The position numbers and the translations under genes were made by a program. Below, in pieces: positions 5,347 through 62,082 of a DNA stretch of 64,000 nt. The number at the start of each line of letters is the position of its first letter. Position 1 is the stretch's first letter. This stretch comes from Planctomycetota bacterium. Its GTDB lineage: Bacteria; JAJVIF01; JAPKYR01. The stretch covers positions 17,334 to 81,333 of the forward strand of contig JAUWTM010000002.1 in assembly GCA_030614715.1 (NCBI GenBank), given 5' to 3'. Under the pieces are notes generated by a model that was not told the origin of the DNA, ran no database searches, and was given only the letters and a program-made list of their open reading frames with translations.

Positions 5347-6339
5347 ATGAACAAACACCCAGGACAAACAAGGGAGATGCACGATAAACTCGGGCGTATC
5401 GCCCCTTACGCGACCATTGTCATTCTGCTGGTCGTCAGCTACTTCGCATTGTTCCATTCAGGCAACGGCTTCATGCAGACTGCTTCAGCTCAGACCCAGC
5501 CTGGACGGATTGGTGAAGCGATAACCGATACAGTGACCGGTGCAGCCGCCGAGCACAGCGGTGACATCGCGGAGGTCGAGGCTGAGCTTGATTCACCTGC
5601 AAGTATGGAAGAAGAAACCGAACCCGCGGGACCACCGGAAATCGACGAAGCTGATCTGCCTCCCGGGGAATCCGCTGAGCTTGGAGTCGATGCCGGCGGA
5701 CAGACCGTTATCGATATCCGCGAGGGGACACCGTATTACACGAATGCTGAAGGTGTAGGCGGGAATGAGTTCATTGAAATGGATGAGGACGAAATCCGTC
5801 TGATTCTGATGGAAGTGGATGCGATTATGGGCTCAGAGGCAATAGTCAACTCGCTGATGCCTCTGGTACTCAGGTTCCAGGAGATGGTTAGTCCTCCCGT
5901 TGACCCAAGGACCTTCGGTGAGAATCCACCCTGGACTTCGGAATCCAGGCGTTACAGCCCCTTCGACCCGGTTGGCATACAGGGCGGTCCGATACGGCGA
6001 AGCGAAGCGGTACCTCCGTTCAGGAACCCGCTTCCGGGAATCGACGTGGTCGTCGATCAGCCGGAAATCAACGCTGAAATGGTGGCCCAGAGCATTTCGC
6101 TGGTTGGAGTAATAGGTGAACCTGGAAGTTACCAGGCCATCCTTACAGCCTTTGGATATGAGCGTCGGGTAGCTATCGGTGACGAGGTCATCACCATTTC
6201 CGAGAAAACATATATCATTTCCGACATCAGCCTGTTGAACATCATTATCACCGACAATAGCAATGAAAGAGATACTGCTGTGATTCCCTTTATCGAACAG
6301 GAGAGAGCCGGCATCGCCGAGATGTCTTTCTCTTATTGA
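5347..6339 (+). CDS. PilP-like periplasmic pilus assembly protein (tentative)
   Basis: TM anchor (IVILLVVSYFALF), a long acidic linker, and a C-terminal beta-rich segment (YQAILTAFGYERRVAIGDEVI...ISDISLLNIIITD). Lies immediately upstream of the secretin. Confidence 0.4.
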   Translation: MNKHPGQTREMHDKLGRIAPYATIVILLVVSYFALFHSGNGFMQTASAQTQPGRIGEAITDTVTGAAAEHSGDIAEVEAELDSPASMEEETEPAGPPEIDEADLPPGESAELGVDAGGQTVIDIREGTPYYTNAEGVGGNEFIEMDEDEIRLILMEVDAIMGSEAIVNSLMPLVLRFQEMVSPPVDPRTFGENPPWTSESRRYSPFDPVGIQGGPIRRSEAVPPFRNPLPGIDVVVDQPEINAEMVAQSISLVGVIGEPGSYQAILTAFGYERRVAIGDEVITISEKTYIISDISLLNIIITDNSNERDTAVIPFIEQERAGIAEMSFSY

Positions 6340-19597: not shown

Positions 19598-19621
19598 GAT
19601 TCCTCCAAAATAAACTGGTTC

Positions 19622-22198: not shown

Positions 22199-22231
22199 CG
22201 AATTCCTCCCTTATTCCCTGTCAGCCATGTC

Positions 22232-22375
22232 TCAATCCTCATCGAATGGTACCTGCAGCCAGATTTCCCATGTAATTGTGGCAGTTGCGCCCATCGACTG
22301 CATGGATGCCTCGTGTTCCTGAATCTGCGATGGTGATCCTCCTGGTCCGATAAAGCTCTCGTATCCATAGAGGTC
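22232..22375 (-). other. In-frame 47-codon extension after the P3 TGA, encoding the family's conserved C-terminal tail
   Basis: Hand translation in the P3 frame after the TGA gives DLYGYESFIGPGGSPSQIQEHEASMQSMGATATITWEIWLQVPFDED, then TGA at 22232-22234. This aligns with the P4 tail ...RGFIDVFTGFDPSSG...SIISWEIWIQSPETYVRSN. Confidence 0.7.
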
Positions 22376-24817: not shown

Positions 24818-24844
24818 GTGTGTTCTCCTCGTTACTGTTCCTTG

Positions 24845-27454: not shown

Positions 27455-27593
27455 ATTTTCTCCTCCTTCAATAAAACTCAATGCTCGATTAATAGGTTGC
27501 GATTAGTACAACCCATGATCAGGATGGCTGAATCGTTATTGCGCTTTGTACCCTCTACCTAACAGCGTGTAGAACAATTATGTATTTTCTGTT

Positions 27594-27665
27594 GTGGGGC
27601 AGACTTTCCAGTCTGCCTCTTCAAAATTTATATTATATTCTGGCAGACAGGAATGTCTGCCCCAC
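27594..27665. repeat. REP-like inverted pair of GGCAGAC hairpins
   Basis: GTGGGGCAGACTTTCCAGTCTGCC (27594-27617) and TGGCAGACAGGAATGTCTGCCCCAC (27641-27665) are inverted copies of each other, each an internal hairpin, separated by an AT-rich 23-mer. They lie in the P5-P4 intergenic region. Confidence 0.7.
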
Positions 27666-27690
27666 ACGGATTCTGGTCATTTCTACAGAC

Positions 27691-42981: not shown

Positions 42982-44541
42982 ATGACTGGACACCTTTATC
43001 TGACTGGCTTCTCAGGCTCCGGCAAGACCGCTGTAGGTGCGGAACTTGCACGTCGCCTGAAGGTGGATTTCGTAGACCTTGACGAAGAGATTGCAAACAA
43101 GGCGGGAAAGGACCTCGTGTCGCTTTTCGCGGAGGAAGGGGAGCAGGCCTTCCGCTCCATGGAGCTTGAATTCATCACGGAACTTGCGGGACTGGTTGAG
43201 AACGGCGAACCGGGCAAGGTTGTCGCACTCGGTGGCGGATCACTCATGAACCCTGGCATTCAGCAGATCGTTGCATCGTCCGGTGTGCTAGTCTGGCTTC
43301 GTGCCCGGTGGGACAGCCTGTTCGACCGCATCGTTCACGTCAGCGACCGTCCGCTCCTCCAGCGTGCCGAGAAACTCCATGAATTTATCACCTTCAATCG
43401 ACCGTTTTACGAAGCCCGTCTGCCCGGCTACGCTCACTGCGACCTTGTTCTCGACGTCGATCATATGGGTCCTGCGGATGTCGCGACCGCCATTACCCGG
43501 ATCATGAGCTGTTCCTGGTTCCTGACCGTCCGTTTTTTCGAGAGAACACACAATGTGCTCTGTGACTCAGGGCTTCTCGCGCGTACGGGACAGATACTCT
43601 ACCAGCTTGGCGTCCTGCCGCGAGGCATGGTCTGGCTGATTACTACCGGACATCTCGACGAAGACCATCTCCCGCTTGCACGAATAGTCAAGGAAGACCT
43701 CGAAAGCACGCGCCAGCAGGTCAGGCTCCTGAGAATTCCCGATGGGGAAGATGCCAAAACAGCCGAGCAGGTGACGAGAATTCACGATGCATTTCTCGGC
43801 GCGGGTACGTCTCGCGATGACCTCGTAATCGCACTGGGTGGCGGTACGGTGGGTGACGTGGCCGGTTTCGCGGCAGCGACCTTCCTTCGCGGTATCGATA
43901 TTGTGCACATCCCGACAACACTTGTCGGCATGGTCGATGCAGCGCTTGGCGGAAAGACAGCAATAAATCACCCGAAAGGTAAAAATCTGATCGGTGCGTT
44001 CCACCAGCCTAAGGCTGTCCTGATCGACCCCGTTGTTCTGAACACTTCGGCGGACGAATATTACCTCGCGGGACTTGCGGAACTGGTCAAGTACGGCTGC
44101 ATCGCTGATGTCTCGATCATCGAGGACTGCGAAGCAAACTGGAGCGATATCCTCAACCGCCCGACATGGGAGGAGAGCTGGTCGCGTGATGACTGGGCGG
44201 AGCTGAAAGGCAACCCGTGGGACCTGATCCCGCTGATGAGAAAAGGTCTGGCGATCAAGGCTCGTCTGGTCAGTGCCGATGAACGGGAGCTGACCGGGGA
44301 GCGTACCCTCCTGAATTTCGGGCACACGTTCGCGCACGCGTTTGAGACAGCATCCGACTATGCAATCCCGCACGGTCAGGCGGTCGCGCTTGGCATGTGC
44401 GCCGCATTTAAACTCGGGCTGAGCAGGGAATTGGTGACAGATGAGGATGTGGCAAGGATCGAAAAACTCCTGTCCGTGCTGGCATCGGTGGATCTGATCA
44501 GGGATCTCGACGAATCGAAAATATTTGAAGCCATCCGTTAA
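42982..44541 (+). CDS. aroKB: Bifunctional shikimate kinase / 3-dehydroquinate synthase fusion
   Basis: N-terminal Walker A LTGFSGSGKTAVG plus LGGGSL (AroK). C-terminal two thirds carries GGGTVGDVAGFAAATFLRGI, PTTLVGMVDAALGGKTAIN and FGHTFAHAFE (AroB). Confidence 0.85.
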   Translation: MTGHLYLTGFSGSGKTAVGAELARRLKVDFVDLDEEIANKAGKDLVSLFAEEGEQAFRSMELEFITELAGLVENGEPGKVVALGGGSLMNPGIQQIVASSGVLVWLRARWDSLFDRIVHVSDRPLLQRAEKLHEFITFNRPFYEARLPGYAHCDLVLDVDHMGPADVATAITRIMSCSWFLTVRFFERTHNVLCDSGLLARTGQILYQLGVLPRGMVWLITTGHLDEDHLPLARIVKEDLESTRQQVRLLRIPDGEDAKTAEQVTRIHDAFLGAGTSRDDLVIALGGGTVGDVAGFAAATFLRGIDIVHIPTTLVGMVDAALGGKTAINHPKGKNLIGAFHQPKAVLIDPVVLNTSADEYYLAGLAELVKYGCIADVSIIEDCEANWSDILNRPTWEESWSRDDWAELKGNPWDLIPLMRKGLAIKARLVSADERELTGERTLLNFGHTFAHAFETASDYAIPHGQAVALGMCAAFKLGLSRELVTDEDVARIEKLLSVLASVDLIRDLDESKIFEAIR

Positions 44542-44835: not shown

Positions 44836-47142
44836 TTATCTTCTGCCACCGCGATCCCGACGGTCCCTGTTGTCACGTCCACCGCGATCGCTTCCGCCTC
44901 GACGATCGCCGCCGCGGTCACGGTTATATCCGCCGCCGCCACTTGAGCGGTCCCTCGGCGGTCGTGCCGGGAGTTTGTTCAGAATCTCAAGTATCGGATC
45001 GCCGTCCGGGAAAACCAGACCCTTGCGGGTAAGAGATACCTTCCCGGTGTCAGGATCGACGTCCTGTACTTTGACTTTCACGATGTCTCCGACCTTCAGG
45101 CAGTCTTCAACCTGTTCGACACGTCGGTCGCAGATGTTGCTGACGTGGAGAAGTCCGTCCTTGGACGGTGTAAGTTTTACAAACGCTCCGAATGAGGCGA
45201 GTTTGATTACTCTGCCTTCATATTCCTCGCCGATCTCCGGCTCGTGTACGATTTCCTGGATCAGTGCAACTGCTTTCTCGCTGCTTGCTGCATCGGTTGA
45301 TGTGATGTACACCTTGCCGTCATCTTCGATGTCAATCTCGACGCCGGTCTGCTCGATGATTGCCCTGACGATCTTGCCGCCGGGACCGATGACGTCGCCG
45401 ATCTTCTCAGGATCGATGACAACCGTGATAATTCTCGGCGCGTACGGACTCAGTTCGGACCGCGGTTCGGAAAGCACCTCAAGCATCTTGCCAAGAATGT
45501 GTTCGCGGCCCTCTTTGGCCTGTTCCATCGTCTTCCGGACCATCGCCATTGTCAGCCCGTGGATCTTGGTGTCCATCTGGACTGCCGTGATGCCGTTGCG
45601 GCTTCCGGCGACCTTGAAATCCATGTCGCCGTAGAAGTCCTCGATACCCATGAGGTCCGACAGAACTACGAACTTGTCCAGGTCATCGTCATCACTGATA
45701 AGACCCATCGCGATGCCCGCGACCGGCTCCTTGATTGGAACGCCGGCGTCCATGAGCGACAGCGTGCTGCCGCAGACCGCTGCCATCGAGGTCGATCCGT
45801 TCGATGAAAGGATTTCGGTGACCAGACGGAGAGTGTAGGGAAATTCCTCCTGTTCCGGGATCATTGGCCTGAGTGCTTTCTCGGCAAGTGCGCCGTGACC
45901 GATTTCCCTTCGTCCCGGGCCGCGCATGAAGCCGGTATCGCCGTAGCAGAACGGGGCAGCGTAATAATGATGCATGTAGCGCTTGAACTCGACAACGCCG
46001 ATATCATCAAGTCGCTGCTTGTCACCGATAGCTCCAAGCGTCGAGACAGTCATCGCCTGGGTCTCACCGCGTGTGAATATCGCTGATCCGTGGGCGCGCG
46101 GAATAGCCGCGACCTCGCCCCAGATATTGCGGATCTCAGTGTGCTTGCGGTTGTCGATGCGAATCCCTTCGGCCAGGATTCTCGCACGCATGTGCTTCTT
46201 GATCGCTTTCTCGACAAGTTCACCGATCGCTTTCTGCTCGAGAATCTCTTCGGGTTCCCATTCGGTTTTTTCGGGGCCAAATCTTTCGAGAGTACAGGCT
46301 TCCTTGTAGGACTTCATGACCGTATCGCGGTCCTGCTTGCCGGTGATCCCCTCGATCTCCGACCAGTGTTCATCGATGTACTTGAAAACGATCTGTTGCA
46401 GCTCTTCCGGCGGTTCCGCCGGTGGTTCGATCTCCACTTTTTCCTTGCCGATCCGCTCCCTGAGAGCCTCGATGCCGTCGATAATGTCGTTGATTGACTT
46501 CATCGCGTGTTCAATCGCGTTGATGACGATCTCTTCCGACACTTCGTTACATCCGGCCTCAATCATGAGGATGCGTTCACGGGTCGCGCAGACGGTCAGA
46601 TCGAGTGGTGATTCTTCAATGACCTCAAATGACGGGTTCAGGACGAATTCACCGTCTGCCATCGCGACTCGCATCGCTGCCATAGCGTGATTGAACGGGA
46701 TGTCCGACAGCAGTAGTGCAGCTGCGGTGCCTACCGTGGATGGGATGTCGGGTGGATTGGTCTGGTCGGCGCATAATGTGAGTATTACGCACTGGACCTC
46801 GTTTCTGAATCCGTCGGGGAACAGTGGACGGATCGGGCGGTCGATCGCGCGGCTTGTCAGTATGCTCGCGTCGGTCGGACGGCCCTCTTTCTTGATGAAG
46901 CCACCGGGAATTTTTCCGGCAGCGTACATCTTCTCTTCAAGATTAACTACTAATGGGAAAAAGTTGATTCCTTCCCGTGGTTCTTTGCCCATCGTCACTG
47001 CGACGAGCACTTCGGTGTCTCCGTATCGGCACAGCAGACTCTGGTTGGCAAGCCCTGCGAAGGGGCCAACTATAATTTCCAGGTTGTGTTCGCCGATTGG
47101 AATGCTGATCTGGTCCGTGACCAGATGCGTCGTTGCTTCCAT
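44836..47142 (-). CDS. pnp: Polynucleotide phosphorylase with Arg/Gly/Asp-rich C-terminal tail
   Basis: Two RNase PH domains, KH (GPGGKIVRAIIEQTGVEIDIEDDG) and S1 (GRVIKLASFGAFVKL), plus a 44-aa tail PARPPRDRSSGGGGYNRDRGGDRRGGSDRGGRDNRDRRDRGGRR. Confidence 0.95.
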   Translation of the reverse strand: MEATTHLVTDQISIPIGEHNLEIIVGPFAGLANQSLLCRYGDTEVLVAVTMGKEPREGINFFPLVVNLEEKMYAAGKIPGGFIKKEGRPTDASILTSRAIDRPIRPLFPDGFRNEVQCVILTLCADQTNPPDIPSTVGTAAALLLSDIPFNHAMAAMRVAMADGEFVLNPSFEVIEESPLDLTVCATRERILMIEAGCNEVSEEIVINAIEHAMKSINDIIDGIEALRERIGKEKVEIEPPAEPPEELQQIVFKYIDEHWSEIEGITGKQDRDTVMKSYKEACTLERFGPEKTEWEPEEILEQKAIGELVEKAIKKHMRARILAEGIRIDNRKHTEIRNIWGEVAAIPRAHGSAIFTRGETQAMTVSTLGAIGDKQRLDDIGVVEFKRYMHHYYAAPFCYGDTGFMRGPGRREIGHGALAEKALRPMIPEQEEFPYTLRLVTEILSSNGSTSMAAVCGSTLSLMDAGVPIKEPVAGIAMGLISDDDDLDKFVVLSDLMGIEDFYGDMDFKVAGSRNGITAVQMDTKIHGLTMAMVRKTMEQAKEGREHILGKMLEVLSEPRSELSPYAPRIITVVIDPEKIGDVIGPGGKIVRAIIEQTGVEIDIEDDGKVYITSTDAASSEKAVALIQEIVHEPEIGEEYEGRVIKLASFGAFVKLTPSKDGLLHVSNICDRRVEQVEDCLKVGDIVKVKVQDVDPDTGKVSLTRKGLVFPDGDPILEILNKLPARPPRDRSSGGGGYNRDRGGDRRGGSDRGGRDNRDRRDRGGRR

Positions 47143-47147
47143 TCTCC

Positions 47148-47417
47148 TTATTTGCGGAGTTCGAGGGCTCCTATGACCGTTCGGTAACGCTCAATGTCCT
47201 GGCGTTTTAAATACTCCAGTAACCGGCGGCGACGTCCGATCATTTTGAAAAGACCCTGACGGGAATGGTTATCCTTTTTGTGAGTTTTGAGATGTTCTGC
47301 AAGGTGGTTGATGCGCGATGTTAACAGCGCTACCTGTACCTCGGTACTACCTTTATCTCCCTCTCCCCGTTTGAACTTCTCAATAACTGCGGTCTTGGAA
47401 GCCTTATCGAATGACAC
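47148..47417 (-). CDS. rpsO: 30S ribosomal protein S15
   Basis: 89-aa product from GTG 47417 ([33 protein letters not shown]...), preceded by GGAGGAAG. Classic rpsO-pnp order. Confidence 0.9.
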
Positions 47418-47466
47418 TCGCTTCCTCCAATTTCTTTGGTTTTTTCTCTCTTTTAGACAAGCGAGT

Positions 47467-47495
47467 ATTGTAACAACTAATAAGGGATGTGTCAA
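47467..47495 (-). promoter_or_regulatory. Near-consensus sigma70 promoter of rpsO
   Basis: The minus strand reads TTGACA (47495-47490), 17-nt spacer, TACAAT (47472-47467). Confidence 0.6.
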
Positions 47496-47505
47496 AGAAG
47501 TTACA

Positions 47506-48558
47506 TTATAATAATTCAAGTATCTCTGCATCGGGTCCTTCCGAAGCAGAATCAAACTGAGCTAATGCTGATAGCAGTAGAATACGAGACCAGTCTGAGC
47601 CTGGTTTAATGCGTTGGTATGACTGAGGAGGTTTAAGGTTGCTTTCAAGCATATTATTAATTTGGTCCAATTTTATTAAATTATCGTAAGGCTTGATGTG
47701 CTCAAATTCTATTGCATATACATTCTCAGATTGATCAGTATAGCTTTCATATTCTTGCTTTGTGCAGCCTATTCTGTATCCACATTCTTCCCAAATCTCT
47801 TCGGGTGATGCAGAAGATATATTTTTTATCTGTGCTTCGCAGATTAGGCTACGTATTGGAGATGATGCATAGATTGAGACTCTTTGTCCTAACCATTTGT
47901 GGCTAAATCTCCTTCTGATCTCAATCGTTTTACGTCCTTGGATGATGGATTTAGCATGCTGAGGTTTCAAAGACATAAGTATTGGGTTATCTGTAGACAA
48001 ACCATTGATGCAGAAATGATCAATAAGTTTTGGCAGTTTTTTTAAGGCTGAACGCCATACGGTTTTAAATGATGCTGAACAGAGGAATTCAGATTCTGAC
48101 GGTCGATACTTACAGCCTACATCATGAAAATTTTTGAATCCAAAAGATCCGAAAAAACCTTTACGTGCATGCCAAAGGCTCTCTGGAAGCGTGAAGTGGA
48201 TTTCCTTTGAGCCTTTTCCCACACCGATTGTCATCATTATGAATAGCATTTCACCCAGATTTTGATCCTGAACATCTTCTTCGATTTTCAGATGACAGAA
48301 TTTGGGAAACTCCCCCCTTTTCGCAATTGCAGTAGCTACAGGTTTATTGTCTTTTAAACAGATATACGCCAATCTTTCTTTGGAAATAATCCCCGGTACT
48401 ACTTTTTCCTTAAACCAGCGGGAAATTTCAGGATACATTCTTTCGTTCATTAAGATTCTTTCTTTAAATATATCGAATAAGTTGGATTTAGCCCTTATAT
48501 CAGAGCCGGTCAAAATTTTAATACTAATGTTCTCTTTATATTTAAAATTTAATGCCAT
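47506..48558 (-). CDS. GNAT-like / ASCH-domain fusion protein
   Basis: The C-terminal half starts [25 protein letters not shown], a typical ASCH (PUA-like) opening. The N-terminal half has a GNAT-like layout (...AIAKRG...[19 protein letters not shown]...FGFKNF), which is tentative. AT-rich codon usage. Confidence 0.6.
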
Positions 48559-48616
48559 GTTCTAGCGATCATTCCTATCTTTTAAATATATTGTTTATTT
48601 AAAGTGATGATTGAAA

Positions 48617-49729
48617 TTACTTCCAATCTTCAAAGAATTTAGATAATTTTAAACCTTGTGAATCGTAAGGGCTTGGATCAGGCTCAGCGTCTTCAGACAT
48701 ACGAAATAATGAAAGTCGCGCCAATTTTTCCCCGTCAATGAGATTTACATCCACTGTGTGACCTCGGACTTCAAAAATAAGTGGGGTGCCCTCTTCCTGA
48801 TCAGAACGATTTTTGCCGAAATGAGGATGGACAAATCCTGCGTAATGTATCCGCATTTCACCAATAGTCTCGTCAATAGCTCGACAGTATACAGCTATGC
48901 CTTTAGGGACTGCGATTTTTTCTTTGGATCTTAAAATGTAAAAATTATCTGTTTCAATTTTCAATCTTCCATGATCTGCGAGTTTCATTTCCCAGAATTC
49001 GTCCGGTTTGGGCTTAGGATCTTCATCTGTTTTCCATAGGTCAATAGTAAGATCGGTGGGATATTTTGCACAAAATGCACAAGCATTCTTTCCAGGAATT
49101 ATTTCTGTTTCTTCAAGGTTAACGGAAAGACACCCATCGGATTCCTGAATGTTACGAAGCAGACACAACCAGTAATCCTTGCCTTTAACTTTTGAAAGAT
49201 CAGGATCACAATAGAAAAGGCGGAGCTGTGATAGTGAAATATCTTTTTTAACGTTGATGTTAAATGTGATAGGTGTAATCTCAAGATACATATCTGGTGA
49301 ACTAAGGTGCTCAGGTATAAAACCCTCGTATCCATACATCCCATCTACAATGAGCCTAGCGAGTACATCAACACGACCGATTGAGCTTTTAGCTGTGGCT
49401 TGCCCATATATTTTAGAACTTTTTGAAAGGTGGAGTTGCTCCCTTAATTTAATTAGATAGGTTTTTCTAGCTTCTAGCTTGAAAATATCATCATCTGGCT
49501 CCAGTTTGGACATATATTTGTCTTTTATAAATGTATGATATCTTGCTCCGTGGGGTTTAATCGATCCTTCTTTCAACACATAGCCTTCATCGGTCAAATG
49601 TAAATCTATTGAGGATGCGCCAATGCTTTTTTTATCAACATTTTTTAGATAACCATCTTCGCACAGTTGTATGGTCTGTGCTTTATTAAGGACTCCTGGA
49701 ATCCATTCTTTCCAAGGCTCTTTTCTCAT
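48617..49729 (-). CDS. Long-form 2'-deoxycytidine 5'-triphosphate deaminase-family protein (DCD / dUTPase-fold)
   Basis: N-terminal IGASSIDLHLTDEGYVL resembles the Dcd ASVDLRLG motif. C-terminal ILRSKEKIAVPKG...IHYAGFVHPHFG...GTPLIFEVRGH...LIDGEKLARLSLFRMSE resembles the Dcd core, with a Glu at the LEF-like position. About 370 aa, as in the long DCD family. Confidence 0.65.
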   Translation of the reverse strand: MRKEPWKEWIPGVLNKAQTIQLCEDGYLKNVDKKSIGASSIDLHLTDEGYVLKEGSIKPHGARYHTFIKDKYMSKLEPDDDIFKLEARKTYLIKLREQLHLSKSSKIYGQATAKSSIGRVDVLARLIVDGMYGYEGFIPEHLSSPDMYLEITPITFNINVKKDISLSQLRLFYCDPDLSKVKGKDYWLCLLRNIQESDGCLSVNLEETEIIPGKNACAFCAKYPTDLTIDLWKTDEDPKPKPDEFWEMKLADHGRLKIETDNFYILRSKEKIAVPKGIAVYCRAIDETIGEMRIHYAGFVHPHFGKNRSDQEEGTPLIFEVRGHTVDVNLIDGEKLARLSLFRMSEDAEPDPSPYDSQGLKLSKFFEDWK

Positions 49730-49949
49730 AATTAAGAACCTGCTGTGAATCTAAACTTAATCAAATTGTAACAGGTTTTTAAGGCGACGTAAAGAAATTA
49801 GGCTAATTTTTGTTTAGATGTACTTGAAATCCGCTTTAAAGCAAAATCCTTCTATGATTTCTCAGTTTCATTTTGTCTTTAAAGTCAGCTTATTTTGGTG
49901 TAATGTAAATGGATCACTGGACAGAGCTATATCTTAAGGGAACAGATAT

Positions 49950-53161: not shown

Positions 53162-56050
53162 TCACCAAAGATCCAGCGCTCTCAAACCGCCATAGATGCC
53201 GCCGACAAATGCATATCCGGCGAAGACATCAATCCCGTAAGAAATTCCATTAAACTCAAACACTTCCTCTACAAATGCGTCTTCAGGCGGGTCTACATCA
53301 ACAACAAACAAATCTTCTGATGCACTAGTTACAAATGCGTATCCGAAGCCTACATCGACTCTTGACGGTGACGGAGTGTCCAGGAATACTGTCGTAACCT
53401 CACTAATATCGAGCGGATCGGTGATATCAAGGATATGCAGGCCAAAGCTTTGATCGACAACGTACGCGTACTGATCGTCGATTACCACGTCGAATGCGTT
53501 CGTAACCGTGGCTACATTGTTCACGATGGATGCAATTAATGGCGGGTAGACATCAATAACCTGCAAACCACCCGTGCTATCAGCTACATAGGCATAACCG
53601 TCCACTACATCAACACCGACAGAATTACCCGGAGTCGGGACAATGGTGATTGGCGTCAGCGTGCCATCCTCTTCTATGCTTAGAATATTCAGCCCGTTAT
53701 TGTAGGTGGTCATGTAGGCTGTGTCATTGTCGACAGCGATATCCTGTGCGTTGCTCATTACACCAAGGGAGTACACGACGTGAGCTGCCGATGGTGGATG
53801 TACGTCTACGACGCTAATTCCAAAGTCGGCGTCCACGGTGATTGCATATTCATCGTAAAGTTCGAGACTGAACGCCGCTCCTGGTAGTTCCACGTGTTTA
53901 ATAAATGTCATGTTTTCCGGCCAGGGAATATCGAATATGTCCAGATCGCCATAACCATTAGCTGCATAGGCATAATACCCATCTATCTTTACATCCATGG
54001 TAAACGACGGCGTTCTGAGGGTGGTTACGTGGGCAGCTTCATCGTAAGGATCTACATCGTAGATCTGGATACCCGCATAGTGATCTGCTGCTATTACATA
54101 ACCGTCCTCGAACTGCACTTTAAACGGCCATCCAACCGGGACAGAATTTATAATCGTTTCTGTGACCCAGTCGTAAATTTGTAATCCCCCGGTATCATCA
54201 CCTATATAAATGTACTCTCCATAGCATACGCCGAAAGCTTCACCCGGTGTATCCTCGGTATCAATGTCGAGTGGAATGGATGGATCAAAGAGATCCACGG
54301 TATGCAGACCGCTCGCGCCGACCGCTACTGCCGCAATTGCCCACTGGCTGGTGACATCATTTGCGTCATCCGGCGTTGGATGTGTAGTAAACAGTGCCGG
54401 GGCAGTCGGATCAGCGACATTGATCGTTGTGATCCCGCTGCTGCCATTGGCAGTGATTAATATATCAGTGTCCTTGGCAATCGCCGAGCAGCTGCTGCCC
54501 GTATTAATGGACCCGGCAATATGTGCGTCGGCCGGGGGATCTACATCAATACAATATGCCCATCCTGCCATGCTGCATACGTAAGCGTACTCACCATCGA
54601 CTACGACATCGGTTGGCATGTCATCAGTTAAGATTACCGGACCGTGGATGACCGGGGCAACAGGGTCGGTGAGGTCATAGATCCAGAGACCGTTCTCTAC
54701 ATCGGCAACATACACGAACGATCCCTGCGTGAACACTGCGTATGCGTAACCATCTACATCGTATTTCCTCATCCAGAAAGGATTCTCCGGATCCTGCAGG
54801 TCGATCAGGTGAAGCCCGTCAGTTACAGAAACGACATAAGCAATGCCGTCCACCACGTGCATGTCTCTCGGCGCCCAGTTAAGCCAGTCAGGTGAAACGT
54901 CGCGTATGTCCAGTTCCGGCTCCCATTCAACCACTGTAAATGTGCGGATTTTGTACGCGGTAGAATCGATCCAGTACGGGTCAAGATCCGCGTTGACATC
55001 CCTCACGCTGATCAGGTATTCGTACTCATCGGAATCTGCATAGAGCTCATTTCTCACTGTGATGTTGAACGTGGAGTAAGCCCCGTCGTCGCTGACCCAA
55101 TCAGTCTCACGTGTACCGGTCCAGAGTCCGGGACATTCCAGCACGGGTAGGTCGTATGTTGCGGAACCCTGCCAGTCGAATACGAATATTTCCAGTATTA
55201 CTTCTCCACCTTGATCGGTGAGACCCTGGTCCACCGGATGAGGCGTTACATTAATCTTCCACGGTACCCAGCAGTTGGCGTTCGCTCCGAAATCGATCAT
55301 CGGATCGGTGACCGGTGAGGTCACTGGTGGTGCCCAGCATGCATCGATGGCGTATCCGAGTCTCCATTCGAAGTCAGGCATGTCGATCTCATAGTTGACG
55401 GTTATTTCATCCCCTGCATAGAATGCATTGCGTGTGTTTTCAGCACCCGATGAGATGAACCGCTTGTATCCGTTCAATGTTGCCTGCGGGAAGTCGGGAC
55501 TGGCGAAATTCCCCTGGATATATCCCTGCAGACCGCCGGGTCCTGCACCTTCGTAGAGGAAGTTGTATAAAGTCGTGTGACCCTCAGCGTCAACGAGCTC
55601 TCCGTCTCCCCATTCGCGTGCCGGTGTTCTCAGCCAAGCATCCGGGAAAGTTGCGGAGCCATCGAACATTGCTATGCCGCGCACGTCGAAACCGGTGAGG
55701 TTCGGATTCCCGAACGGGTGGGTGACCGTCACGTCCAGCGTGATTGTCCCTTCAGGCGTGACAGCCACGTTCGAGACACCCAGGCAGGTGAAGCACGGTC
55801 CGGATTCCAGCCACTGAAGCGTGTTCCAATGATCCGCTGCAAGACGCGATGGGATAACCGTTGCTTCAAGGGTTCCCGGATCGATTTCGATATCGTAGTA
55901 ACCCCAGAGCGAACGGCTGGATTCGATGGTGGGGCTCCGGTCAGTAAACTCCGGGACCTGTTGTGTAACGGGATCAGCCGACTGGTTACAGCCGACAAGA
56001 AATCCAATAGTGATGACTAATATGATCGGGAGGGAGAGTCTGCGTGCCAT
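53162..56050 (-). CDS. Large surface lipoprotein: novel N-terminal domain + LVIVD-repeat beta-propeller(s)
   Basis: Lipobox GFLVG|C. More than 12 LVIVD-type repeats (GLHLIDLQDP, GLWIYDLTDP, GLQIYDW, GIQIYDVDPY, GISVVDVHPP, GLQVIDVYPP, GLHILDITDP, DLFVVDVDPP, GLRALDLW). Confidence 0.8.
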   Translation of the reverse strand: MARRLSLPIILVITIGFLVGCNQSADPVTQQVPEFTDRSPTIESSRSLWGYYDIEIDPGTLEATVIPSRLAADHWNTLQWLESGPCFTCLGVSNVAVTPEGTITLDVTVTHPFGNPNLTGFDVRGIAMFDGSATFPDAWLRTPAREWGDGELVDAEGHTTLYNFLYEGAGPGGLQGYIQGNFASPDFPQATLNGYKRFISSGAENTRNAFYAGDEITVNYEIDMPDFEWRLGYAIDACWAPPVTSPVTDPMIDFGANANCWVPWKINVTPHPVDQGLTDQGGEVILEIFVFDWQGSATYDLPVLECPGLWTGTRETDWVSDDGAYSTFNITVRNELYADSDEYEYLISVRDVNADLDPYWIDSTAYKIRTFTVVEWEPELDIRDVSPDWLNWAPRDMHVVDGIAYVVSVTDGLHLIDLQDPENPFWMRKYDVDGYAYAVFTQGSFVYVADVENGLWIYDLTDPVAPVIHGPVILTDDMPTDVVVDGEYAYVCSMAGWAYCIDVDPPADAHIAGSINTGSSCSAIAKDTDILITANGSSGITTINVADPTAPALFTTHPTPDDANDVTSQWAIAAVAVGASGLHTVDLFDPSIPLDIDTEDTPGEAFGVCYGEYIYIGDDTGGLQIYDWVTETIINSVPVGWPFKVQFEDGYVIAADHYAGIQIYDVDPYDEAAHVTTLRTPSFTMDVKIDGYYAYAANGYGDLDIFDIPWPENMTFIKHVELPGAAFSLELYDEYAITVDADFGISVVDVHPPSAAHVVYSLGVMSNAQDIAVDNDTAYMTTYNNGLNILSIEEDGTLTPITIVPTPGNSVGVDVVDGYAYVADSTGGLQVIDVYPPLIASIVNNVATVTNAFDVVIDDQYAYVVDQSFGLHILDITDPLDISEVTTVFLDTPSPSRVDVGFGYAFVTSASEDLFVVDVDPPEDAFVEEVFEFNGISYGIDVFAGYAFVGGIYGGLRALDLW

Positions 56051-56178
56051 TGCCTGTCCTCTTTACCGACGAATGACCTAATTAAAGCGTATTAAGCCTG
56101 TACAGTAAAGGAACAGACATTTATTTCAAATTTATGTCTTGTTTATACTGACGGACCTGGCCTTCAATACAGCAGAGA

Positions 56179-59037
56179 TCACCAGTTCCCATCCGGGGGA
56201 AAGTACGTGATAAATGCATCTCCATTACTATAATACTCGCTATCCAGCGAAGTACGCAGATACTCCCCCGGGCCAGGGTCAAAGTCGACTGTATCCCAGA
56301 AATTCCCGCTACAGTATATATGTCCCATGGGACCGACAGTGACCTCTGAGGTCCCCCCCCAGTCGTGTGGGCCTCCCCAGGCTCCATGCCATTGGTATAT
56401 ACCATTGGGATCGAACCTGGTAACGAACATATCGGAATGTTTATCTACAGATGATGACTCAGCAATACCGGGACCTGGATCAAAATCCACTGTTTCACTG
56501 AAGATCCCAGTTACAACAGCGAATCCACCATCGTCAACGTCAACTGAGATCCCCCTATTCTCTGAGTGGAAGCCATATGGCAAATCCGATCCCCAGCCAT
56601 GGGCCCAAAATAATTCGCCATTGGGGTCAAATTTGCTGAGAAATGCTGCACCTTGATACCCGGCAGTATATTCCAGAACACCGGGGCCAGGATCGAAATC
56701 GACCGTTTCGTTTATGTACCCTGTAACGAAGATGTCATCATTGACATCGACTGCAACTCCAAGACTCTCATCCTTCAAAACTCCTCCCCAGCCCACGGCC
56801 CATTGAAATGTGCCATCGCCGGAGAGCTTGCTCAAAAAGCAATCAGTCCAACCAGTTGAGGTTGGTTCAATCCACCACGTGTCCCCGCCAGGATCAAAAT
56901 CAGTTAATGTAATGAACGAACCGGCGACATAGACATTACCGGATGCATCTGTGTCTACAGCCCTTGCTACGGTCCAATCTGCTGGTGATTCTGTCCATCC
57001 ACCCCAGGTTCCCGCCCAGATGAAATCCCCCGACGGACTCATTTTTAACAAGAAGGCATCATGTGTTCCAATCAACTCATGTATGTCGGTTCCAGGTCCG
57101 GGGTCAAAATCAATTGTCCCGGCATAAAAACCAGCCATATATACATTATCGTTTCCATCCGTGCACATGTCTATACTGCTCTCGCGACCTTCTCCTCCGA
57201 TCGTGCGGGCCCATATAAAGTTGCCGTCTGAATCGTACTTGGCAACCAGGATATCCAGGTCACCGTTGGATACATAAAATTGCTCGCTTGGATCACCCTC
57301 AAAACGAACATCGATAAAAAAATAGCCTGACAAATAAATATTATCATCACTGTCAATCGCCACCGCTCCCGCCCCTTCATGAAAATCACCACCGATTACT
57401 CTGACCCACTGGAATATCCCTTCGCTGTCAAATTTACTAACAAAGGCACTCTCACCAGGCATATATCCGGGCCATGCTACTTCACGCCATTCCACTCCAG
57501 GACCCGGATCGAAATCAATAGCTCCGGAGTAAGTGCCAACCGTAATTATATTGCCATCGTTGTCAGTGCAGATACTTCGAGCTGTATCGTTGACTCCGGA
57601 ACCCCAGGTCCGAGCCCAGCCTGGATCCGTCTTGACCTGTATTAAAATTGACGTAACACCGGTCGAGCCTTCGTCGTCCGTAACGCGCATATTTACTTCG
57701 TGATCCCCGGGAATGCCAAACGTGTGTGACACTAATTCCCCTTCCGCATCGTAGGTCCCATCACTCTCCCAGTCCCACTCCCATTTGACAATGTCACCGC
57801 CATCCGGATCGTATGAGCCATTTTCAAAGAATTGAACAGGTTTTGAGACTGTTTGAGGTAGTGGCCACGCATCAGGCATCGCCACCGGCTCGTGGTCAAC
57901 AAAGACCACTTCGACAGGTATTATGTTATATCCAGTTTCAACGCTTGGATCATTAAGGCCTTCCAATGGCCTGACCATAGCGAACAGTGGATAGACCCCT
58001 ATTGGATGTCCGGAATCATTGAGATAACCTTTATAAATAATGGTTCCATCAAGTTGAGTTTCGTTATAAACTGGTATACTACCGTAGCCATCCGGCCACT
58101 TAATTTTCGCGAATAATATTCCATCCTTTCCCTGGTGATCGTTGATCTCAAGTGTATATGGAATATCTAGCTCAGGTGCAGTATCAAACACACCCTCAAA
58201 GGTAACCGATATTCGATATGCTTCAACGCAATTGGCTTCAGGGGGGAAATCGGTCTCAGGATCTGTTACAGGTCCGGGTGGTTTGGCCCAGCATGCATCA
58301 ATTGCGTAACCGAATTCAAAGGGAACGCCGGGAAGCAGAATCCTGGCTGTCCTGGTTTCCTGTGTTCCGGGTAAAAACATGCGTCTTGGAGTTTCTTTTG
58401 AATATGCCAGGAAGGGATTAAGCACTGCTGAAAGGTCGGTGCTGTTTGCATACTCACCAGTGTAATACTTGAATATCGGGTGTTCTGAGGAATCCTCTGG
58501 ATAATATAAAGGATTGAAATACTTTGTATAGCCATCATAGTTAATGAGGAAAGGCAGATCGATGTTTTCTACATTGGGGATATCATCCCACCATGATAAG
58601 GGGTATAATCCTACCGGGTAATAGTTATAATCTGTGATAAAAACCCCTCTGACATCAAAGCCGGTGAGGTTAAGGTTGTTTTCAAAAGGATGTCTCAATG
58701 TTATGTCTACACTGAGCTCTCCCGGTGTGCTGAAATCAAAATTATCTATGGTGAGGCAATCGGTGCAGGGTGACACCTCTAGCAGATAAGTTGCATTTAG
58801 ATGCATGCCTGCAATACGCTGGGGAGCAGCCAAGACAGTCTGGCTATCGGGATCCACGCTGAATTGCCAGAGACCCCATAGGTATCGATTGCTGTCTACT
58901 GATTCCTGAGCAGTACTCTGAAAAGATAAAGTGTTGTCATCATTCGACGGGAGCACCGGATTCGTTGATCCACCAGAGGCACATCCCATCTGGAGGAGAA
59001 GGAGACACCCAATTAATATGAGAGATTTATTCAGCAT
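56179..59037 (-). CDS. Large surface lipoprotein: same N-terminal domain + PKD domain + SBBP-type beta-propeller repeats
   Basis: Lipobox LQMG|C. PKD-like FENGSYDPDGGDIVKWEWDWESDGTYDAEG...VNMRVTDDEGSTG. Six or more G.....[IV]DFDPGPG repeats (SBBP-like). Confidence 0.8.
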   Translation of the reverse strand: MLNKSLILIGCLLLLQMGCASGGSTNPVLPSNDDNTLSFQSTAQESVDSNRYLWGLWQFSVDPDSQTVLAAPQRIAGMHLNATYLLEVSPCTDCLTIDNFDFSTPGELSVDITLRHPFENNLNLTGFDVRGVFITDYNYYPVGLYPLSWWDDIPNVENIDLPFLINYDGYTKYFNPLYYPEDSSEHPIFKYYTGEYANSTDLSAVLNPFLAYSKETPRRMFLPGTQETRTARILLPGVPFEFGYAIDACWAKPPGPVTDPETDFPPEANCVEAYRISVTFEGVFDTAPELDIPYTLEINDHQGKDGILFAKIKWPDGYGSIPVYNETQLDGTIIYKGYLNDSGHPIGVYPLFAMVRPLEGLNDPSVETGYNIIPVEVVFVDHEPVAMPDAWPLPQTVSKPVQFFENGSYDPDGGDIVKWEWDWESDGTYDAEGELVSHTFGIPGDHEVNMRVTDDEGSTGVTSILIQVKTDPGWARTWGSGVNDTARSICTDNDGNIITVGTYSGAIDFDPGPGVEWREVAWPGYMPGESAFVSKFDSEGIFQWVRVIGGDFHEGAGAVAIDSDDNIYLSGYFFIDVRFEGDPSEQFYVSNGDLDILVAKYDSDGNFIWARTIGGEGRESSIDMCTDGNDNVYMAGFYAGTIDFDPGPGTDIHELIGTHDAFLLKMSPSGDFIWAGTWGGWTESPADWTVARAVDTDASGNVYVAGSFITLTDFDPGGDTWWIEPTSTGWTDCFLSKLSGDGTFQWAVGWGGVLKDESLGVAVDVNDDIFVTGYINETVDFDPGPGVLEYTAGYQGAAFLSKFDPNGELFWAHGWGSDLPYGFHSENRGISVDVDDGGFAVVTGIFSETVDFDPGPGIAESSSVDKHSDMFVTRFDPNGIYQWHGAWGGPHDWGGTSEVTVGPMGHIYCSGNFWDTVDFDPGPGEYLRTSLDSEYYSNGDAFITYFPPDGNW

Positions 59038-59187
59038 AACGCCGGACCATGTGTTTATTTATGGTGTCATTCACTAGAACCACCTAATTTTATCATATAA
59101 TCCAGATATGGTGACAACATCAGGTCCGCTCAGGGCTCCATCAACTTCGACCGGGCTGCTGCCTCAGGATACTATGGCGGCTGGAAT

Positions 59188-62082
59188 CTACCACAGGTCC
59201 AGTACTCTGAATCCACCGATGTAGCCCCCGACATAAGCGTATCCATCAACAAATTCCATGCCGAATGCAAATCCCCTGAGATTGATAGTATCGACAAGTA
59301 ACACATCCTCAGGCGGATCGATATCGATTACGTAGATTTCGTCTGAAAGGGTGGTCACGAATGCGTGGCCATATTGAATATAGACGAAACGGGGTTCTTC
59401 GACGAGTTCGATATACGTGATTTCCGAACAGTTGGTCGGATCCGAGATGTCGTAGATGTACATCCTCATGTCATCGCTTGTAATGCATGCGTAATCGCCC
59501 GCTATATCTACATCTCCCACAATTCCGGGGATGCTCATGAAATCGACAATTGATGCTGAACCGGGAGGATCGCAATCTATTACCTGGACACCCTGGACTC
59601 CATCCGCGACGTATGCATAGCCGTCAGCACCACAGATACCGTCGGCTATGCCGGGTGTCGGAACTGAACCCGCAAGAGTCAATGTCCCTGGTGGTCCGAT
59701 ATCATAGATGGCCATTCCGACAACCTGATCGGAAGCATAAACCCGATCGCCATCGATGGCGAGTTCCTGGGGTAAGCTGGGTGAAAACAAGATATCAGAA
59801 ATATGTGTCAGCCCGGGAGGGTCAATGTCGTAAATAAAAATATCTCCGTACCCATCGGTCACATATGCGAAGCCATCAGCGGCATCAATTTTGTATGAAT
59901 AATACGGAGTAATGATAGCTTTTACGATAAACGTGTTTTGAGGATCGTGTACATCAAGGACAAAGAAACCCTCGAGGTTGGTTAAGAAAGCATACCCATC
60001 ATCTACATATACATCCATTGCGAATCCTGGTGTCAACAGGGATGTAACCTCGTGAGCATCATCAAACGGATCGACATCGGCAACGTGTAATCCCAGTGCG
60101 TCGTCCGCAGTGTAAACATACCCGTCGTAGTATTCAATAAAGCTTGCAGTTCCTTTAATAGCCGCATCCCCAACAATGTTAGCCATAATTAGTGGATCTA
60201 CATCGATAATCTGAATGCCGTCATGACCGGCTCCAACGTAAACGTGTCCAAAGGAGTAATCCAGGCTTTGCGCGTCGCCGGGAGTGTCGACGGTGACTAC
60301 TGGTACCGGGGCGCCTGGAATAAGAAAATCAATCACCTGCATCCCGAAACCGCTTACAGCCGTGGCCGCAAAGAAATCCCAACAGGTGACATCCCGGGCC
60401 ATTCCAACAGTGACGAAATTAGATTCGAGTGCTGGATTTACAGGATCGGTAACATTGATGATATCGATACCGTCATCGCCAACTGCTGCAACGATGTAGT
60501 TGTCATGCTTTTCGAGATTTTGGACCGATGCAGTAGTCGGTTCCGATCCCACTAAATGAGTGCTCTCCGGAGGATTGATGTCGAATATATCCAACCGCCC
60601 CGCTAGATTTCCCACATACGCGTAGTTAGAGTTGGCATGAACGCGGCCGGGATAGTCCGCTATGGCGAACGGACCATAAACGATCGGATCTTCCGGGTCG
60701 AACATATCGTAAATAATCAGGCCTTCCATTAAATCCGTGACATACACAAAGGAACATTCAGCAAATACTCCATTGTAGAAACAGTCCTCCCCGTACTTCC
60801 TTACCCAGAACGGATTATTCGGATCCGACAGGTCGAAAATGTGCAGCCCGTTCATAACTGAGGTTATGTAACCGGTATCACCATGTTTGAGGAAGTCCGA
60901 CGGTGCCCAGTTTAGCCAGTCCGGAGTCACATCGACAATATTAAAATCGGGCTCCCACTCGACAACCTCAAGGTTGAGTACCTTGTACGCGGTCATGTCG
61001 ATCCATTCGGGTGATGTACTGCCTGCAAAGTCGCGCACTGTCACAAGGCATTTGTATTCCCCGACAGGAGCGAGGAGGTCATTGTTAATAGTGATGTTGA
61101 AGGTCGAGTAAGCCCCATTATCGCTGTCAAAAACCGCCAGTCGAGACCCGTGGAACAAATCAGGACATTCCAGCCCCGGTGTAGCGTATGAAGCGTCACC
61201 ATCGTAATCGAAGACGAACAGTTCCAGGATCAACTGGCCACCCTGATCGTTCAGACCCTGTCCGACCGGATGCGGTGAGACGTTTATCTTCCAGGGCTCG
61301 GGACAATTGGCTTCGGGACCGAAATCGGTCATGGGATCTGTCACGGGCGTAGTTACCGGTGGAGTCCAGCAGGCGTCGATGGCATATCCGAGGACAAGAT
61401 CTCCATCGGGCATGTCGATCTCGTAATTCATTGTCACCTCGTCCCCGGCGTAGAAAGCGTTGCGCGTGTTGGACGGATCGTCCGATATGAAACGCATGAA
61501 GCCGTTCAGCGTGGCAGTCGGTACTTCACCTGACGCGAAATTTCCCTGGATGTATCCCTGCAGTCCGCCCGGACCCATACCTGTCGTGGCTGGATTGTAG
61601 AGTGTCGTGTACCCCTGCGCGCTCACCAGCTCCCCTTCGCCATTCCGACGATCCGGGACCCTGAGCCATGCATCAGGGAAGGTCACGCTCCCGTCGAACA
61701 TTGCTATGCCGCGCACGTCGAACCCGGTGAAGGTCGGATTCCCGAACGGGTGTGTGACCGTCACGTCCAGCGTGAGCGTCCCTTCAGGCGTGACAGCCAC
61801 GTTCGAGACACCCAGGCAGGTGTAGCACGGGCCGGATTCGAGCCAGCCCAGTGTGTTCCAGTGGTCTGTCGCGAGACGCGATGGGATAACCGTCGCTTCA
61901 AGGGTTTCCGGATCGATTTCGATATCGTAGTAACCCCAGAGTGAACGGTTTGATTCGATGGTGGGGCTCCGGTCAGTTATATCCGGGACCTGTTGTGTTA
62001 CGGGATCAGCCGACTGGTTACAGCCGACCAGAAATCCAATACTGATGACTAAAATGATCGGGAGGGAGAGTCTGCGTGCCAT
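59188..62082 (-). CDS. Large surface lipoprotein, paralog of 53162-56050 (N-terminal domain + LVIVD repeats)
   Basis: N-terminus nearly identical to that of 53162-56050. LVIVD-type repeats (GLHIFDLSDP, GLIIYDMFDP, RLDIFDINPP, GIDIINVTDP, GMQVIDFLIP, GIQIIDVDP, GLHVADVDPF, FFVLDVHDP, DIFIYDIDPP, GMAIYDIGPP, GVQVIDCDPP, RMYIYDISDP, EIYVIDIDPP, GFRVLDLW). Confidence 0.8.
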   Translation of the reverse strand: MARRLSLPIILVISIGFLVGCNQSADPVTQQVPDITDRSPTIESNRSLWGYYDIEIDPETLEATVIPSRLATDHWNTLGWLESGPCYTCLGVSNVAVTPEGTLTLDVTVTHPFGNPTFTGFDVRGIAMFDGSVTFPDAWLRVPDRRNGEGELVSAQGYTTLYNPATTGMGPGGLQGYIQGNFASGEVPTATLNGFMRFISDDPSNTRNAFYAGDEVTMNYEIDMPDGDLVLGYAIDACWTPPVTTPVTDPMTDFGPEANCPEPWKINVSPHPVGQGLNDQGGQLILELFVFDYDGDASYATPGLECPDLFHGSRLAVFDSDNGAYSTFNITINNDLLAPVGEYKCLVTVRDFAGSTSPEWIDMTAYKVLNLEVVEWEPDFNIVDVTPDWLNWAPSDFLKHGDTGYITSVMNGLHIFDLSDPNNPFWVRKYGEDCFYNGVFAECSFVYVTDLMEGLIIYDMFDPEDPIVYGPFAIADYPGRVHANSNYAYVGNLAGRLDIFDINPPESTHLVGSEPTTASVQNLEKHDNYIVAAVGDDGIDIINVTDPVNPALESNFVTVGMARDVTCWDFFAATAVSGFGMQVIDFLIPGAPVPVVTVDTPGDAQSLDYSFGHVYVGAGHDGIQIIDVDPLIMANIVGDAAIKGTASFIEYYDGYVYTADDALGLHVADVDPFDDAHEVTSLLTPGFAMDVYVDDGYAFLTNLEGFFVLDVHDPQNTFIVKAIITPYYSYKIDAADGFAYVTDGYGDIFIYDIDPPGLTHISDILFSPSLPQELAIDGDRVYASDQVVGMAIYDIGPPGTLTLAGSVPTPGIADGICGADGYAYVADGVQGVQVIDCDPPGSASIVDFMSIPGIVGDVDIAGDYACITSDDMRMYIYDISDPTNCSEITYIELVEEPRFVYIQYGHAFVTTLSDEIYVIDIDPPEDVLLVDTINLRGFAFGMEFVDGYAYVGGYIGGFRVLDLW

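Follow-up and report, generated by a model that had tools for sequence, protein, structure and literature searches.

The locus considered here raises a simple question: why does an AT-rich islet of just two genes stand between the gene for ribosomal protein S15 (rpsO) and that for an FAD oxidoreductase in a member of the Planctomycetota, and what might it do? The DNA analysed – hereafter the window – is the whole stretch of 64,000 nucleotides from contig JAUWTM010000002.1 (assembly GCA_030614715.1, positions 17,334 to 81,333 of the forward strand). An earlier reading of the bare sequence (the original prediction) had described the pair as horizontally acquired, one gene encoding a protein of the dCTP deaminase (DCD) family and the other a fusion of a GNAT-like with an ASCH domain. 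Horizontal acquisition of the islet is well supported, the pairing of DCD with GNAT-ASCH is essentially obligate, and the islet is probably a mobile biological-conflict cassette, whether anti-phage (abortive infection) or toxin-antitoxin-like.

Composition and gene content of the islet

The sharp drop in composition that had been noted between rpsO and the oxidoreductase gene is evident in windowed G+C and in third codon positions alike. In windows of 400 nt, G+C is 0.33-0.40 within the islet (~47400-49900) as against 0.50-0.58 in flanking DNA: this is the sole deep dip in the 64 kb. G+C at third codon positions (GC3) is 0.33 for the GNAT-ASCH gene (product P1) and 0.31 for the DCD gene (product P2), compared to 0.66 for pnp, 0.51 for rpsO and 0.57 for the oxidoreductase gene. 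The features of the islet, with the evidence for each, are as follows.

47418..49949, no strand assigned: AT-rich islet, recognised by low G+C; its ends are set at the starts of rpsO and of the oxidoreductase gene and only approximate the insertion borders
49765..49793, minus strand: promoter-like site of the cassette, TTTACG-17-TACAAT plus TG extension (consensus match only), holding one copy of a 9-mer
48617..49729, minus strand: P2, 370-aa long-form DCD (tandem dUTPase fold), gene 1 of the operon (Pfam, AlphaFold, Foldseek)
49175..49729, minus strand: P2 N-lobe, aa 1-185, with putative deaminase residues K114, S115, R119 and E150
48620..49174, minus strand: P2 C-lobe, aa 186-370, a diverged second Dcd-like domain (alignment of homologs)
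48559..48616, minus strand: intergenic spacer between P2 and P1, 58 nt
47506..48558, minus strand: P1, 350-aa GNAT-ASCH fusion, gene 2 of the operon (Pfam, AlphaFold, Foldseek, PADLOC models)
48004..48531, minus strand: P1 GNAT-fold domain, aa ~10-185 (Foldseek, phrog_13728, PDC-M11A)
47554..47985, minus strand: P1 ASCH domain, aa ~192-335, ZmASCH 'GKER' type (Pfam, PDB 5GUQ, Foldseek)
47467..47495, minus strand: promoter-like site of rpsO, TTGACA-17-TACAAT (11/12) plus TG extension (consensus match), holding the other copy of the 9-mer

Exactly two long open reading frames (ORFs) were recovered from the islet, both on the minus strand with P2 first and P1 second, as had been described. The short spacer between them is usual among relatives, where gaps between tblastn matches are ~50-120 nt. 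On one side of the islet lie rpsO and pnp (encoding PNPase); on the other are genes for a Pyr_redox_2 (pyridine-nucleotide-disulphide) oxidoreductase, a pterin-4a-carbinolamine dehydratase, an SDR protein and FolB. No integrase or tRNA gene was found at the islet and its flanks, and the original statement that the islet lacks an integrase holds.

The two genes form a widespread, essentially obligate pair

A genome scan with a single sequence gave no matches; an alignment-driven scan with P1, restricted to one genome per species, was then used and returned 80 loci. These span about a dozen phyla (as judged from record titles) and are sparsely distributed: hosts include Acidobacteriota, Planctomycetota, Myxococcota, Verrucomicrobiota, Bacteroidota, Spirochaetales, Desulfobacterota, Deferribacteres, Ignavibacteria, Alpha- and Gammaproteobacteria, Binatus and Latescibacterota. 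The carriers include an apparently cultured lineage (Flavobacteriaceae, P0087). At E≤1e-30, a set of 1.84 billion representatives contains 97 representative clusters of the P1 family.

A gene for long-form DCD lies directly upstream of the P1 homolog and on the same strand in 74 of the 75 P1-anchored genome loci that have enough upstream sequence. Conversely, among DCD-anchored metagenome loci, all 74 that extend 400 nt or more downstream contain an adjoining GNAT-ASCH gene, in the same order and on the same strand; DCD without its partner was never encountered among them. All-against-all clustering of ORFs revealed no recurrent third gene, the next commonest cluster being present in just seven loci. 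Pairwise distances within the P1 and P2 families are correlated (r=0.75, n=50, Mantel 0/2000), and in one sample the two genes are fused, as confirmed at the DNA level. Adjacency, correlated divergence and fusion together bear out the expectation that the genes co-occur elsewhere; nor is the DCD gene a fixed housekeeping component of this locus.

The fusion is found on a 21-kb contig (Logan SRR22808038, locus L169), where positions 4001-6175 hold a single ORF of 724 aa comprising a complete long-form DCD and a complete GNAT-ASCH.

GNAT-ASCH without DCD was seen in one Thermoanaerobaculia genome (L012) and on a 75-kb phage contig (L082). The solo gene of the phage contig (IMG/VR, 74.7 kb; positions 9938-10996) encodes a protein with 34% identity to P1, and the contig also carries portal-like and very large structural genes. 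A fragment comprising GNAT only is present on another viral contig (L084). That DCD is never found alone and GNAT-ASCH sometimes is may be the pattern expected of a dangerous DCD and its controller, the numbers being tiny; the phage-borne solo GNAT-ASCH could be a counter-defence decoy.

The pair is horizontally mobile

In every one of the 68 testable loci the G+C of the pair falls below that of the adjoining 5 kb on either side, with a mean difference of -0.09 and a difference under -0.10 in 24 of them. Locus L083 and the fusion locus also fall below their flanks (0.555 vs 0.644 for the latter). Genomic contexts differ from locus to locus and are unrelated. Together with the low G+C and GC3 of the islet itself, these data uphold the proposal that it was acquired horizontally.

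Viral contigs rarely carry the cassette: there are four IMG/VR matches, of which one has the full pair, and tblastn against annotated phages and plasmids finds the ASCH half only and no full cassette. Given these counts, a phage origin of the cassette is unlikely.

The original prediction had also drawn attention to a 9-bp direct repeat at both edges, allowing that it could be chance. The repeat is present (ATTGTAACA, at 47467-47475 and 49765-49773, the second copy having been placed one position too far along), and between flanks of 88 and 220 nt some shared 9-mer would arise by chance with a probability of ~0.11-0.14, so that the caution was apt. Read on the minus strand, which is the coding one, the repeat is TGTTACAAT and forms a TG-extended -10 box. 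One copy belongs to the promoter-like site 36 nt upstream of the P2 ATG; the other to the promoter-like site of rpsO, a flanking gene, and thus lies outside the cassette. A target-site duplication was rejected on both grounds: chance is plausible and both copies are TG-extended -10 boxes. No longer direct or inverted repeats flank the islet.

P2 is a long-form DCD of a distinct subfamily

The description of P2 as a 370-aa dUTPase-fold protein of the DCD family stands, both on its Pfam domains and on its structural match to 2R9Q, a long-form DCD from Agrobacterium. The Pfam models DCD, DCD_N and DCD_C match with E-values of 1e-23 to 1e-29, and scores exceed the gathering thresholds for DCD_N (PF06559; 84.1 bits vs 21.4) and DCD_C (PF22569; 101.6 vs 22): P2 thus carries DCD_N followed by DCD_C in one chain, the arrangement that defines a long-form DCD. 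Against the NCBIfam equivalog model for 2'-deoxycytidine 5'-triphosphate deaminase (PRK07559) P2 scores 179.9 bits, below the cut-off of 283, and is for this reason assigned to a distinct subfamily. The AlphaFold model (pLDDT, the predicted local distance difference test, 90.6) aligns over its full length with 2R9Q (Foldseek; template modelling (TM) score 0.88, E 2e-26, ~350 columns), which is also the single match in a PDB sequence search. Each half of P2 matches characterised dCTP deaminases/dUTPases in its own right (Foldseek E 1e-8 to 1e-5).

Relative to the A. tumefaciens protein and its family (PF06559/PF22569), P2 has the same tandem two-lobe architecture (hidden Markov model (HMM) E 5e-44), but identity to 2R9Q is just ~26%, and the invariant HP.FG of P2 stands where 2R9Q has DPGFG. 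Unlike other long-form DCDs, the P2 subfamily is obligately linked to GNAT-ASCH. No characterisation of 2R9Q was found in the searched literature.

Alignment of 34 P2 homologs shows the N-lobe motifs AKSSxGR and YLEITP to be invariant. So too are S115, R119 and E150, which align (MAFFT --add) with S111, R115 and E138 of E. coli Dcd; this mapping combines the MAFFT placement with Foldseek and is of moderate reliability. The N-lobe is accordingly predicted, with moderate confidence, to retain the Ser/Arg/Glu residues of dCTP deaminases. The C-lobe has an invariant signature of its own (DE.IGEMRIHYAGF.HP.FG...FEVRGH) plus a C-terminal Y..Q lid-like motif; A284 and T288 occupy the Ser and Arg positions, and an invariant H301 stands where Dcd has D128. 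Each lobe shares the fold of Dcd and of the bifunctional Dcd-dUTPases (E. coli, M. tuberculosis, M. jannaschii; Foldseek E 1e-8 to 1e-6), but where canonical Dcd is homotrimeric, P2 consists of two fused lobes, the second diverged, and is encoded by a horizontally mobile gene rather than a housekeeping one.

The C-terminus of P2 (48617-48640) ends in ...FFEDWK, without the extension of ~20-30 aa (WP......DG.V...) found in most homologs; a minority of homologs are equally short.

P1 joins a GNAT fold to a ZmASCH-type domain

The AlphaFold model of P1 resolves two domains with confidence (pLDDT 87.8, predicted TM score 0.81). For the first, the proposed GNAT-like fold is borne out by more than 40 acetyltransferase structures (Foldseek E 1e-9 to 1e-6, TM ~0.6), but the Pfam GNAT threshold is missed: Acetyltransf_10 scores 17.6 bits, under the cut-off of 23.6. 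More distant relatives of P1 (P0458 and P0503) do pass this threshold. The domain also matches the acetyltransferase family phrog_13728 (E 6e-5). Its invariant motifs are KFCHL, LGE, HFTLPE, FGF and QYR. GNAT motif B (FF.SFGF) is present; in the region of the acetyl-CoA motif A (Q/R-x-x-G-x-G/A) the family reads ..L-G-E-[AVM], with G102 alone invariant.

The second domain is an ASCH domain, as had been proposed: the Pfam match (PF04266) is above its cut-off (E 2.7e-7; 31.6 bits vs 21.2), and there is a further match to phrog_3136 (E 2e-28). The closest structure is ZmASCH, the ASCH ribonuclease of Zymomonas mobilis (PDB 5GUQ; TM 0.85, phmmer E 2e-15, 29% identity). Two subgroups of ASCH proteins are distinguished by an octapeptide, which is of the GK[T/S]R form in the YqfB type and 'GKER' in the ZmASCH type; since that of P1 is GRKTIEIR (GxKxxExR, with K210, E213 and R215 invariant), P1 is grouped with ZmASCH and not with YqfB. 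ZmASCH depends on Y47, K53 and S128 to bind single-stranded nucleic acids and to act as an RNase; of these, Y47 corresponds to the invariant Y230 and S128 to the nearly invariant S313 (PPQS313), with R236 in place of K53. ZmASCH, at 147 aa, stands alone, whereas here the domain is part of a fusion.

These assignments bear on the suggested analogy between P1 and YqfB, an N4-acetylcytidine (ac4C) amidohydrolase. Some ASCH proteins are ac4C amidohydrolases that serve in salvage, and the ASCH domain of P1 belongs to the same superfamily as these and as the ASCH erasers of tRNA ac4C. YqfB, however, has a Thr/Ser residue in the octapeptide and acts on the free nucleoside, where P1 has Glu213; a YqfB-type identity was ruled out on this basis. 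ZmASCH does not hydrolyse free ac4C, nor does it lower tRNA ac4C in cells; according to a 2026 preprint, every tested ASCH protein, ZmASCH included, strips ac4C34 from E. coli tRNA in vitro. The analogy is therefore weaker than claimed, P1 being of the ZmASCH type, even if tRNA is deacetylated by ZmASCH in vitro.

P1 is related to PDC-M11/GevAT

Both domains of P1 have relatives in PDC-M11, a candidate system represented among the PADLOC models. The ASCH domain matches PDC-M11B models (E 1.8e-26), and the GNAT domain matches one PDC-M11A model (E 2.6e-7, P1 residues 40-144 to profile positions 177-286 of 486). PDC-M11A is in turn the family of a 'GevT toxin' (E 2e-133), and PDC-M11B that of a 'GevA antitoxin' (E 7e-52), so named in Escherichia phage PhiR47_2. 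P1 and GevT have phrog_13728 in common in their GNAT domains, and P1 and GevA share phrog_3136; the C-terminal domain of GevT, phrog_30943, has no counterpart in P1.

In PhiR47_2 (PV340567.1, positions 2944-4372) the two genes encode proteins of 357 aa (GevT) and 125 aa (GevA) and overlap by 23 nt. The pair is located directly after cI and before kil – a slot that in lambda belongs to rexAB. GevT/GevA-like pairs, annotated as N-acetyltransferase plus ASCH, are also carried by a plasmid of Pseudomonas and by a prophage within a Rahnella plasmid. On the Pseudomonas plasmid (Pseudomonas sp. CIP-10, positions 3377-6009) the pair lies between a gene for a 192-aa P-loop protein, which precedes it and has nucleoside/nucleotide-kinase-like matches (AAA_17, dNK, cytidylate kinase-like), and an additional GNAT gene, which follows it: a second case of a GNAT-ASCH pair adjoining a nucleotide-handling enzyme.

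Judged by its domain matches, P1 is related to PDC-M11/GevAT and is not a member. In both there is a partnership of GNAT-type and ZmASCH-type domains on mobile DNA, but GevAT consists of two overlapping genes (~355 and ~125 aa) where P1 is one fused chain; it has the phrog_30943 C-domain, which P1 lacks; it has no DCD; and it resides in enterobacterial prophages and plasmids, whereas the P1 family is found mainly in environmental metagenome-assembled genomes. Assignment of P1 to PDC-M11B was rejected, the ASCH region being homologous but fused within 350 aa rather than a stand-alone protein of ~125-140 aa, as was assignment to PDC-M11A, only the GNAT region of which matches, without phrog_30943. 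The original prediction could match the pair to no described system. The DCD/GNAT-ASCH pairing is indeed undescribed in the literature searched, but P1 does match the PADLOC candidate PDC-M11, for which no paper was found beyond one listing.

A probable conflict cassette and its possible mechanism

Neighbouring genes were compared with PADLOC models. Strong matches among the 138 nearest-neighbour ORFs include the DRT UG13a reverse transcriptase, PARIS AriA, MADS, CapP and a TIR-pAgo partner, together with type I, II and III methyltransferases. The control set, drawn from within these loci, consisted of 138 ORFs lying five or more genes distant; its members match PD-T4-6, AbiEi, MzaA and MADS. 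Defence genes are common within 10 kb of the cassette in a subset of loci.

The explanation of the islet that we prefer overall, though we hold it with somewhat less than even confidence, is that of an acquired DCD plus GNAT-ASCH operon functioning as a conflict module, with DCD the effector and GNAT-ASCH the controller. The gene arrangement, the folds, the residue conservation, the obligate and co-evolving pairing, the signature of horizontal transfer and the kinship with PDC-M11/GevAT are established; the enzymatic activities, the division into effector and controller and the anti-phage role are what we infer, and the steps would run as follows. The operon is horizontally acquired and self-contained, with DCD first and GNAT-ASCH second. 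Since its N-lobe keeps the Ser/Arg/Glu residues, the long-form DCD would deaminate dCTP, or a modified dCTP, and so drain the dCTP pool required for phage DNA synthesis. GNAT-ASCH is the obligate partner, probably in a physical complex with DCD, as the natural fusion (P0370) predicts: its GNAT domain appears related to the GevT toxin, its ZmASCH/GevA-type domain would bind nucleic acid in single-stranded form and might strip off N4-acetyl groups, and the protein as a whole would sense infection or restrain the effector. In this specific form – nucleotide-pool effector, dCTP depletion, sensor/controller – the mechanism is a tentative one, which we think rather less likely to be right than wrong.

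dCTP depletion by deamination, the precedent cited in the original prediction, is a proven anti-phage strategy; if P2 is active, the proposed outcome – phage replication starved of dCTP – would be that of the proven defensive dCTP deaminases (Tal et al.). Those proteins, however, combine an N-terminal kinase with a zinc-dependent cytidine deaminase in one gene.

Several observations count against the preferred explanation. The proven deaminases differ from P2 in fold and architecture, and P2 matches no PADLOC model (E≤1); with its dUTPase fold it was rejected as a member of the known defensive family, and because of these differences a role for P2 in dCTP depletion would be convergent, a functional analogy at most and a weaker one than claimed. 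The mapping of P2 onto E. coli Dcd is only moderately reliable because hmmsearch, hhalign and pairwise alignment of its halves with that short enzyme gave no usable alignment. Homology between P1 and GevT is weak (full-length BLASTP not significant, hhalign E 0.014), and the toxin and antitoxin labels of GevAT are GenBank annotation for which no supporting paper was found. The expected enrichment near defence genes is not demonstrated: such genes are present in some loci, but nearest neighbours match 119 PADLOC families and distal ORFs 123, and many contexts of the cassette, that of this window included, are purely housekeeping. Finally, the roles of effector and regulator could be swapped between DCD and GNAT-ASCH.

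An alternative that we regard as unlikely is a GevAT-like toxin-antitoxin or addiction module in which the GNAT domain is a toxin that acetylates tRNA, aminoacyl-tRNA or other RNA, the fused ASCH domain is an in-cis antidote (a binder or deacetylase), and DCD is an accessory sensor or nucleotide-binding regulator, any anti-phage role being optional. P1 holds both of the domain types that are labelled toxin (GevT, PDC-M11A) and antitoxin (GevA, PDC-M11B); the tested ASCH proteins deacetylate tRNA ac4C in vitro; and transposon sequencing (Tn-seq) in Dickeya found a prophage ASCH gene to be essential, the behaviour expected of an antitoxin, the presence of an adjoining GevT-like gene being unconfirmed in that case. 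The existence of solo GNAT-ASCH (in L012 and in the phage contig), when solo DCD was never found, fits as well. But a fusion in one chain loses the differential stability on which classical toxin-antitoxin pairs rely, P1 is without the phrog_30943 domain and only weakly similar to GevT, and a DCD that is obligate, sometimes fused and catalytically equipped is left unexplained.

Two further alternatives dispense with toxicity. An accessory module of pyrimidine metabolism or salvage with no part in conflict, in which DCD supplies dUTP/dUMP for thymidylate synthesis and GNAT-ASCH recycles or regulates N4-acetylcytidine nucleosides or nucleotides, would account for the annotation of the P2 family as dCTP deaminase with catalytic residues kept, for the ac4C amidohydrolases among ASCH proteins that work in salvage, and for the many insertions that sit among metabolic genes. 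It is nonetheless hard to reconcile with patchy spread across phyla, foreign G+C in 68/68 loci and the want of a fixed locus; P2 lies under the equivalog cut-off, the ASCH domain is of a type inactive on the free ac4C nucleoside, and a salvage enzyme has no need of an obligate GNAT partner. We think this improbable. Less probable still is a system of cytosine-N4 modification that serves regulation or self-marking by writing and erasing N4-acetyl-(deoxy)cytidine, whether in DNA, in RNA or among dNTPs, with DCD clearing unmodified or aberrant dCTP. Each of the three domains could in principle work on cytosine N4, through deamination, acetylation and deacetylation, PUA-like domains read modified bases, and modified cytosine of phage DNA is what the ZmASCH-like BapA acts upon; but no polymerase, glycosylase, nuclease or other reader or effector recurs among the neighbours, and the case would proceed from analogy throughout, including as to the occurrence of N4-acetyl-dC in the carrier organisms.

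Returning to a conflict module with DCD as effector, one elaboration would make it a new anti-phage system directed at cytosine N4, in which a dUTPase-fold dCTP deaminase is complexed with, and switched by, a GNAT-ASCH writer/eraser of acetyl groups. On encountering phage nucleic acid, GNAT-ASCH would add and remove acetyl groups, either at cytosine N4 of dCTP or tRNA or on DCD itself. We give this elaboration little credence. None of the domains is new, and PDC-M11/GevAT, the nearest system, itself has only candidate status. Were a role in defence or as a toxin-antitoxin system true, it would reveal a second, structurally unrelated route to dCTP-directed immunity and tie acetyl-transfer/ASCH chemistry to the control of nucleotide pools; it would also give a role to long-form DCD (PF06559, 2R9Q) and to ZmASCH/GevA-type ASCH domains, none having been found for either in the searched literature. 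The cassette is compact, comprising two genes and a promoter-like site of its own within 2.3 kb, with clear candidate catalytic residues, and the tie to GevT/GevA (PDC-M11) suggests a wider GNAT-ASCH conflict toolkit with interchangeable partners.

Other features of the window

Elsewhere in the window, two sets of tandem ORFs lie on the minus strand. Five paralogous ORFs of 813-891 aa (17123-30366) share 33-52% pairwise identity, and one of them matches the Lamin Tail Domain. Three ORFs of ~950-965 aa (53162-62082) all bear a signal-like segment predicted at the N-terminus; identity between the first and third is 53%, and LVIVD repeats occur in the first. On the plus strand, a 1576-aa protein (6471-11201) has a secretin domain at its C-terminus only (aa 1392-1549), and a single ORF of 519 aa (42982-44541) joins shikimate kinase (SKI) to 3-dehydroquinate synthase as an AroK-AroB fusion. 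The PNPase encoded beside rpsO ends in a tail of ~45 aa (44836-45000, minus strand) that is rich in Arg, Gly and Asp (RDRSSGGGGYNRDRGGDRRGGSDRGGRDNRDRRDRGGRR) and unusual for bacterial PNPases.

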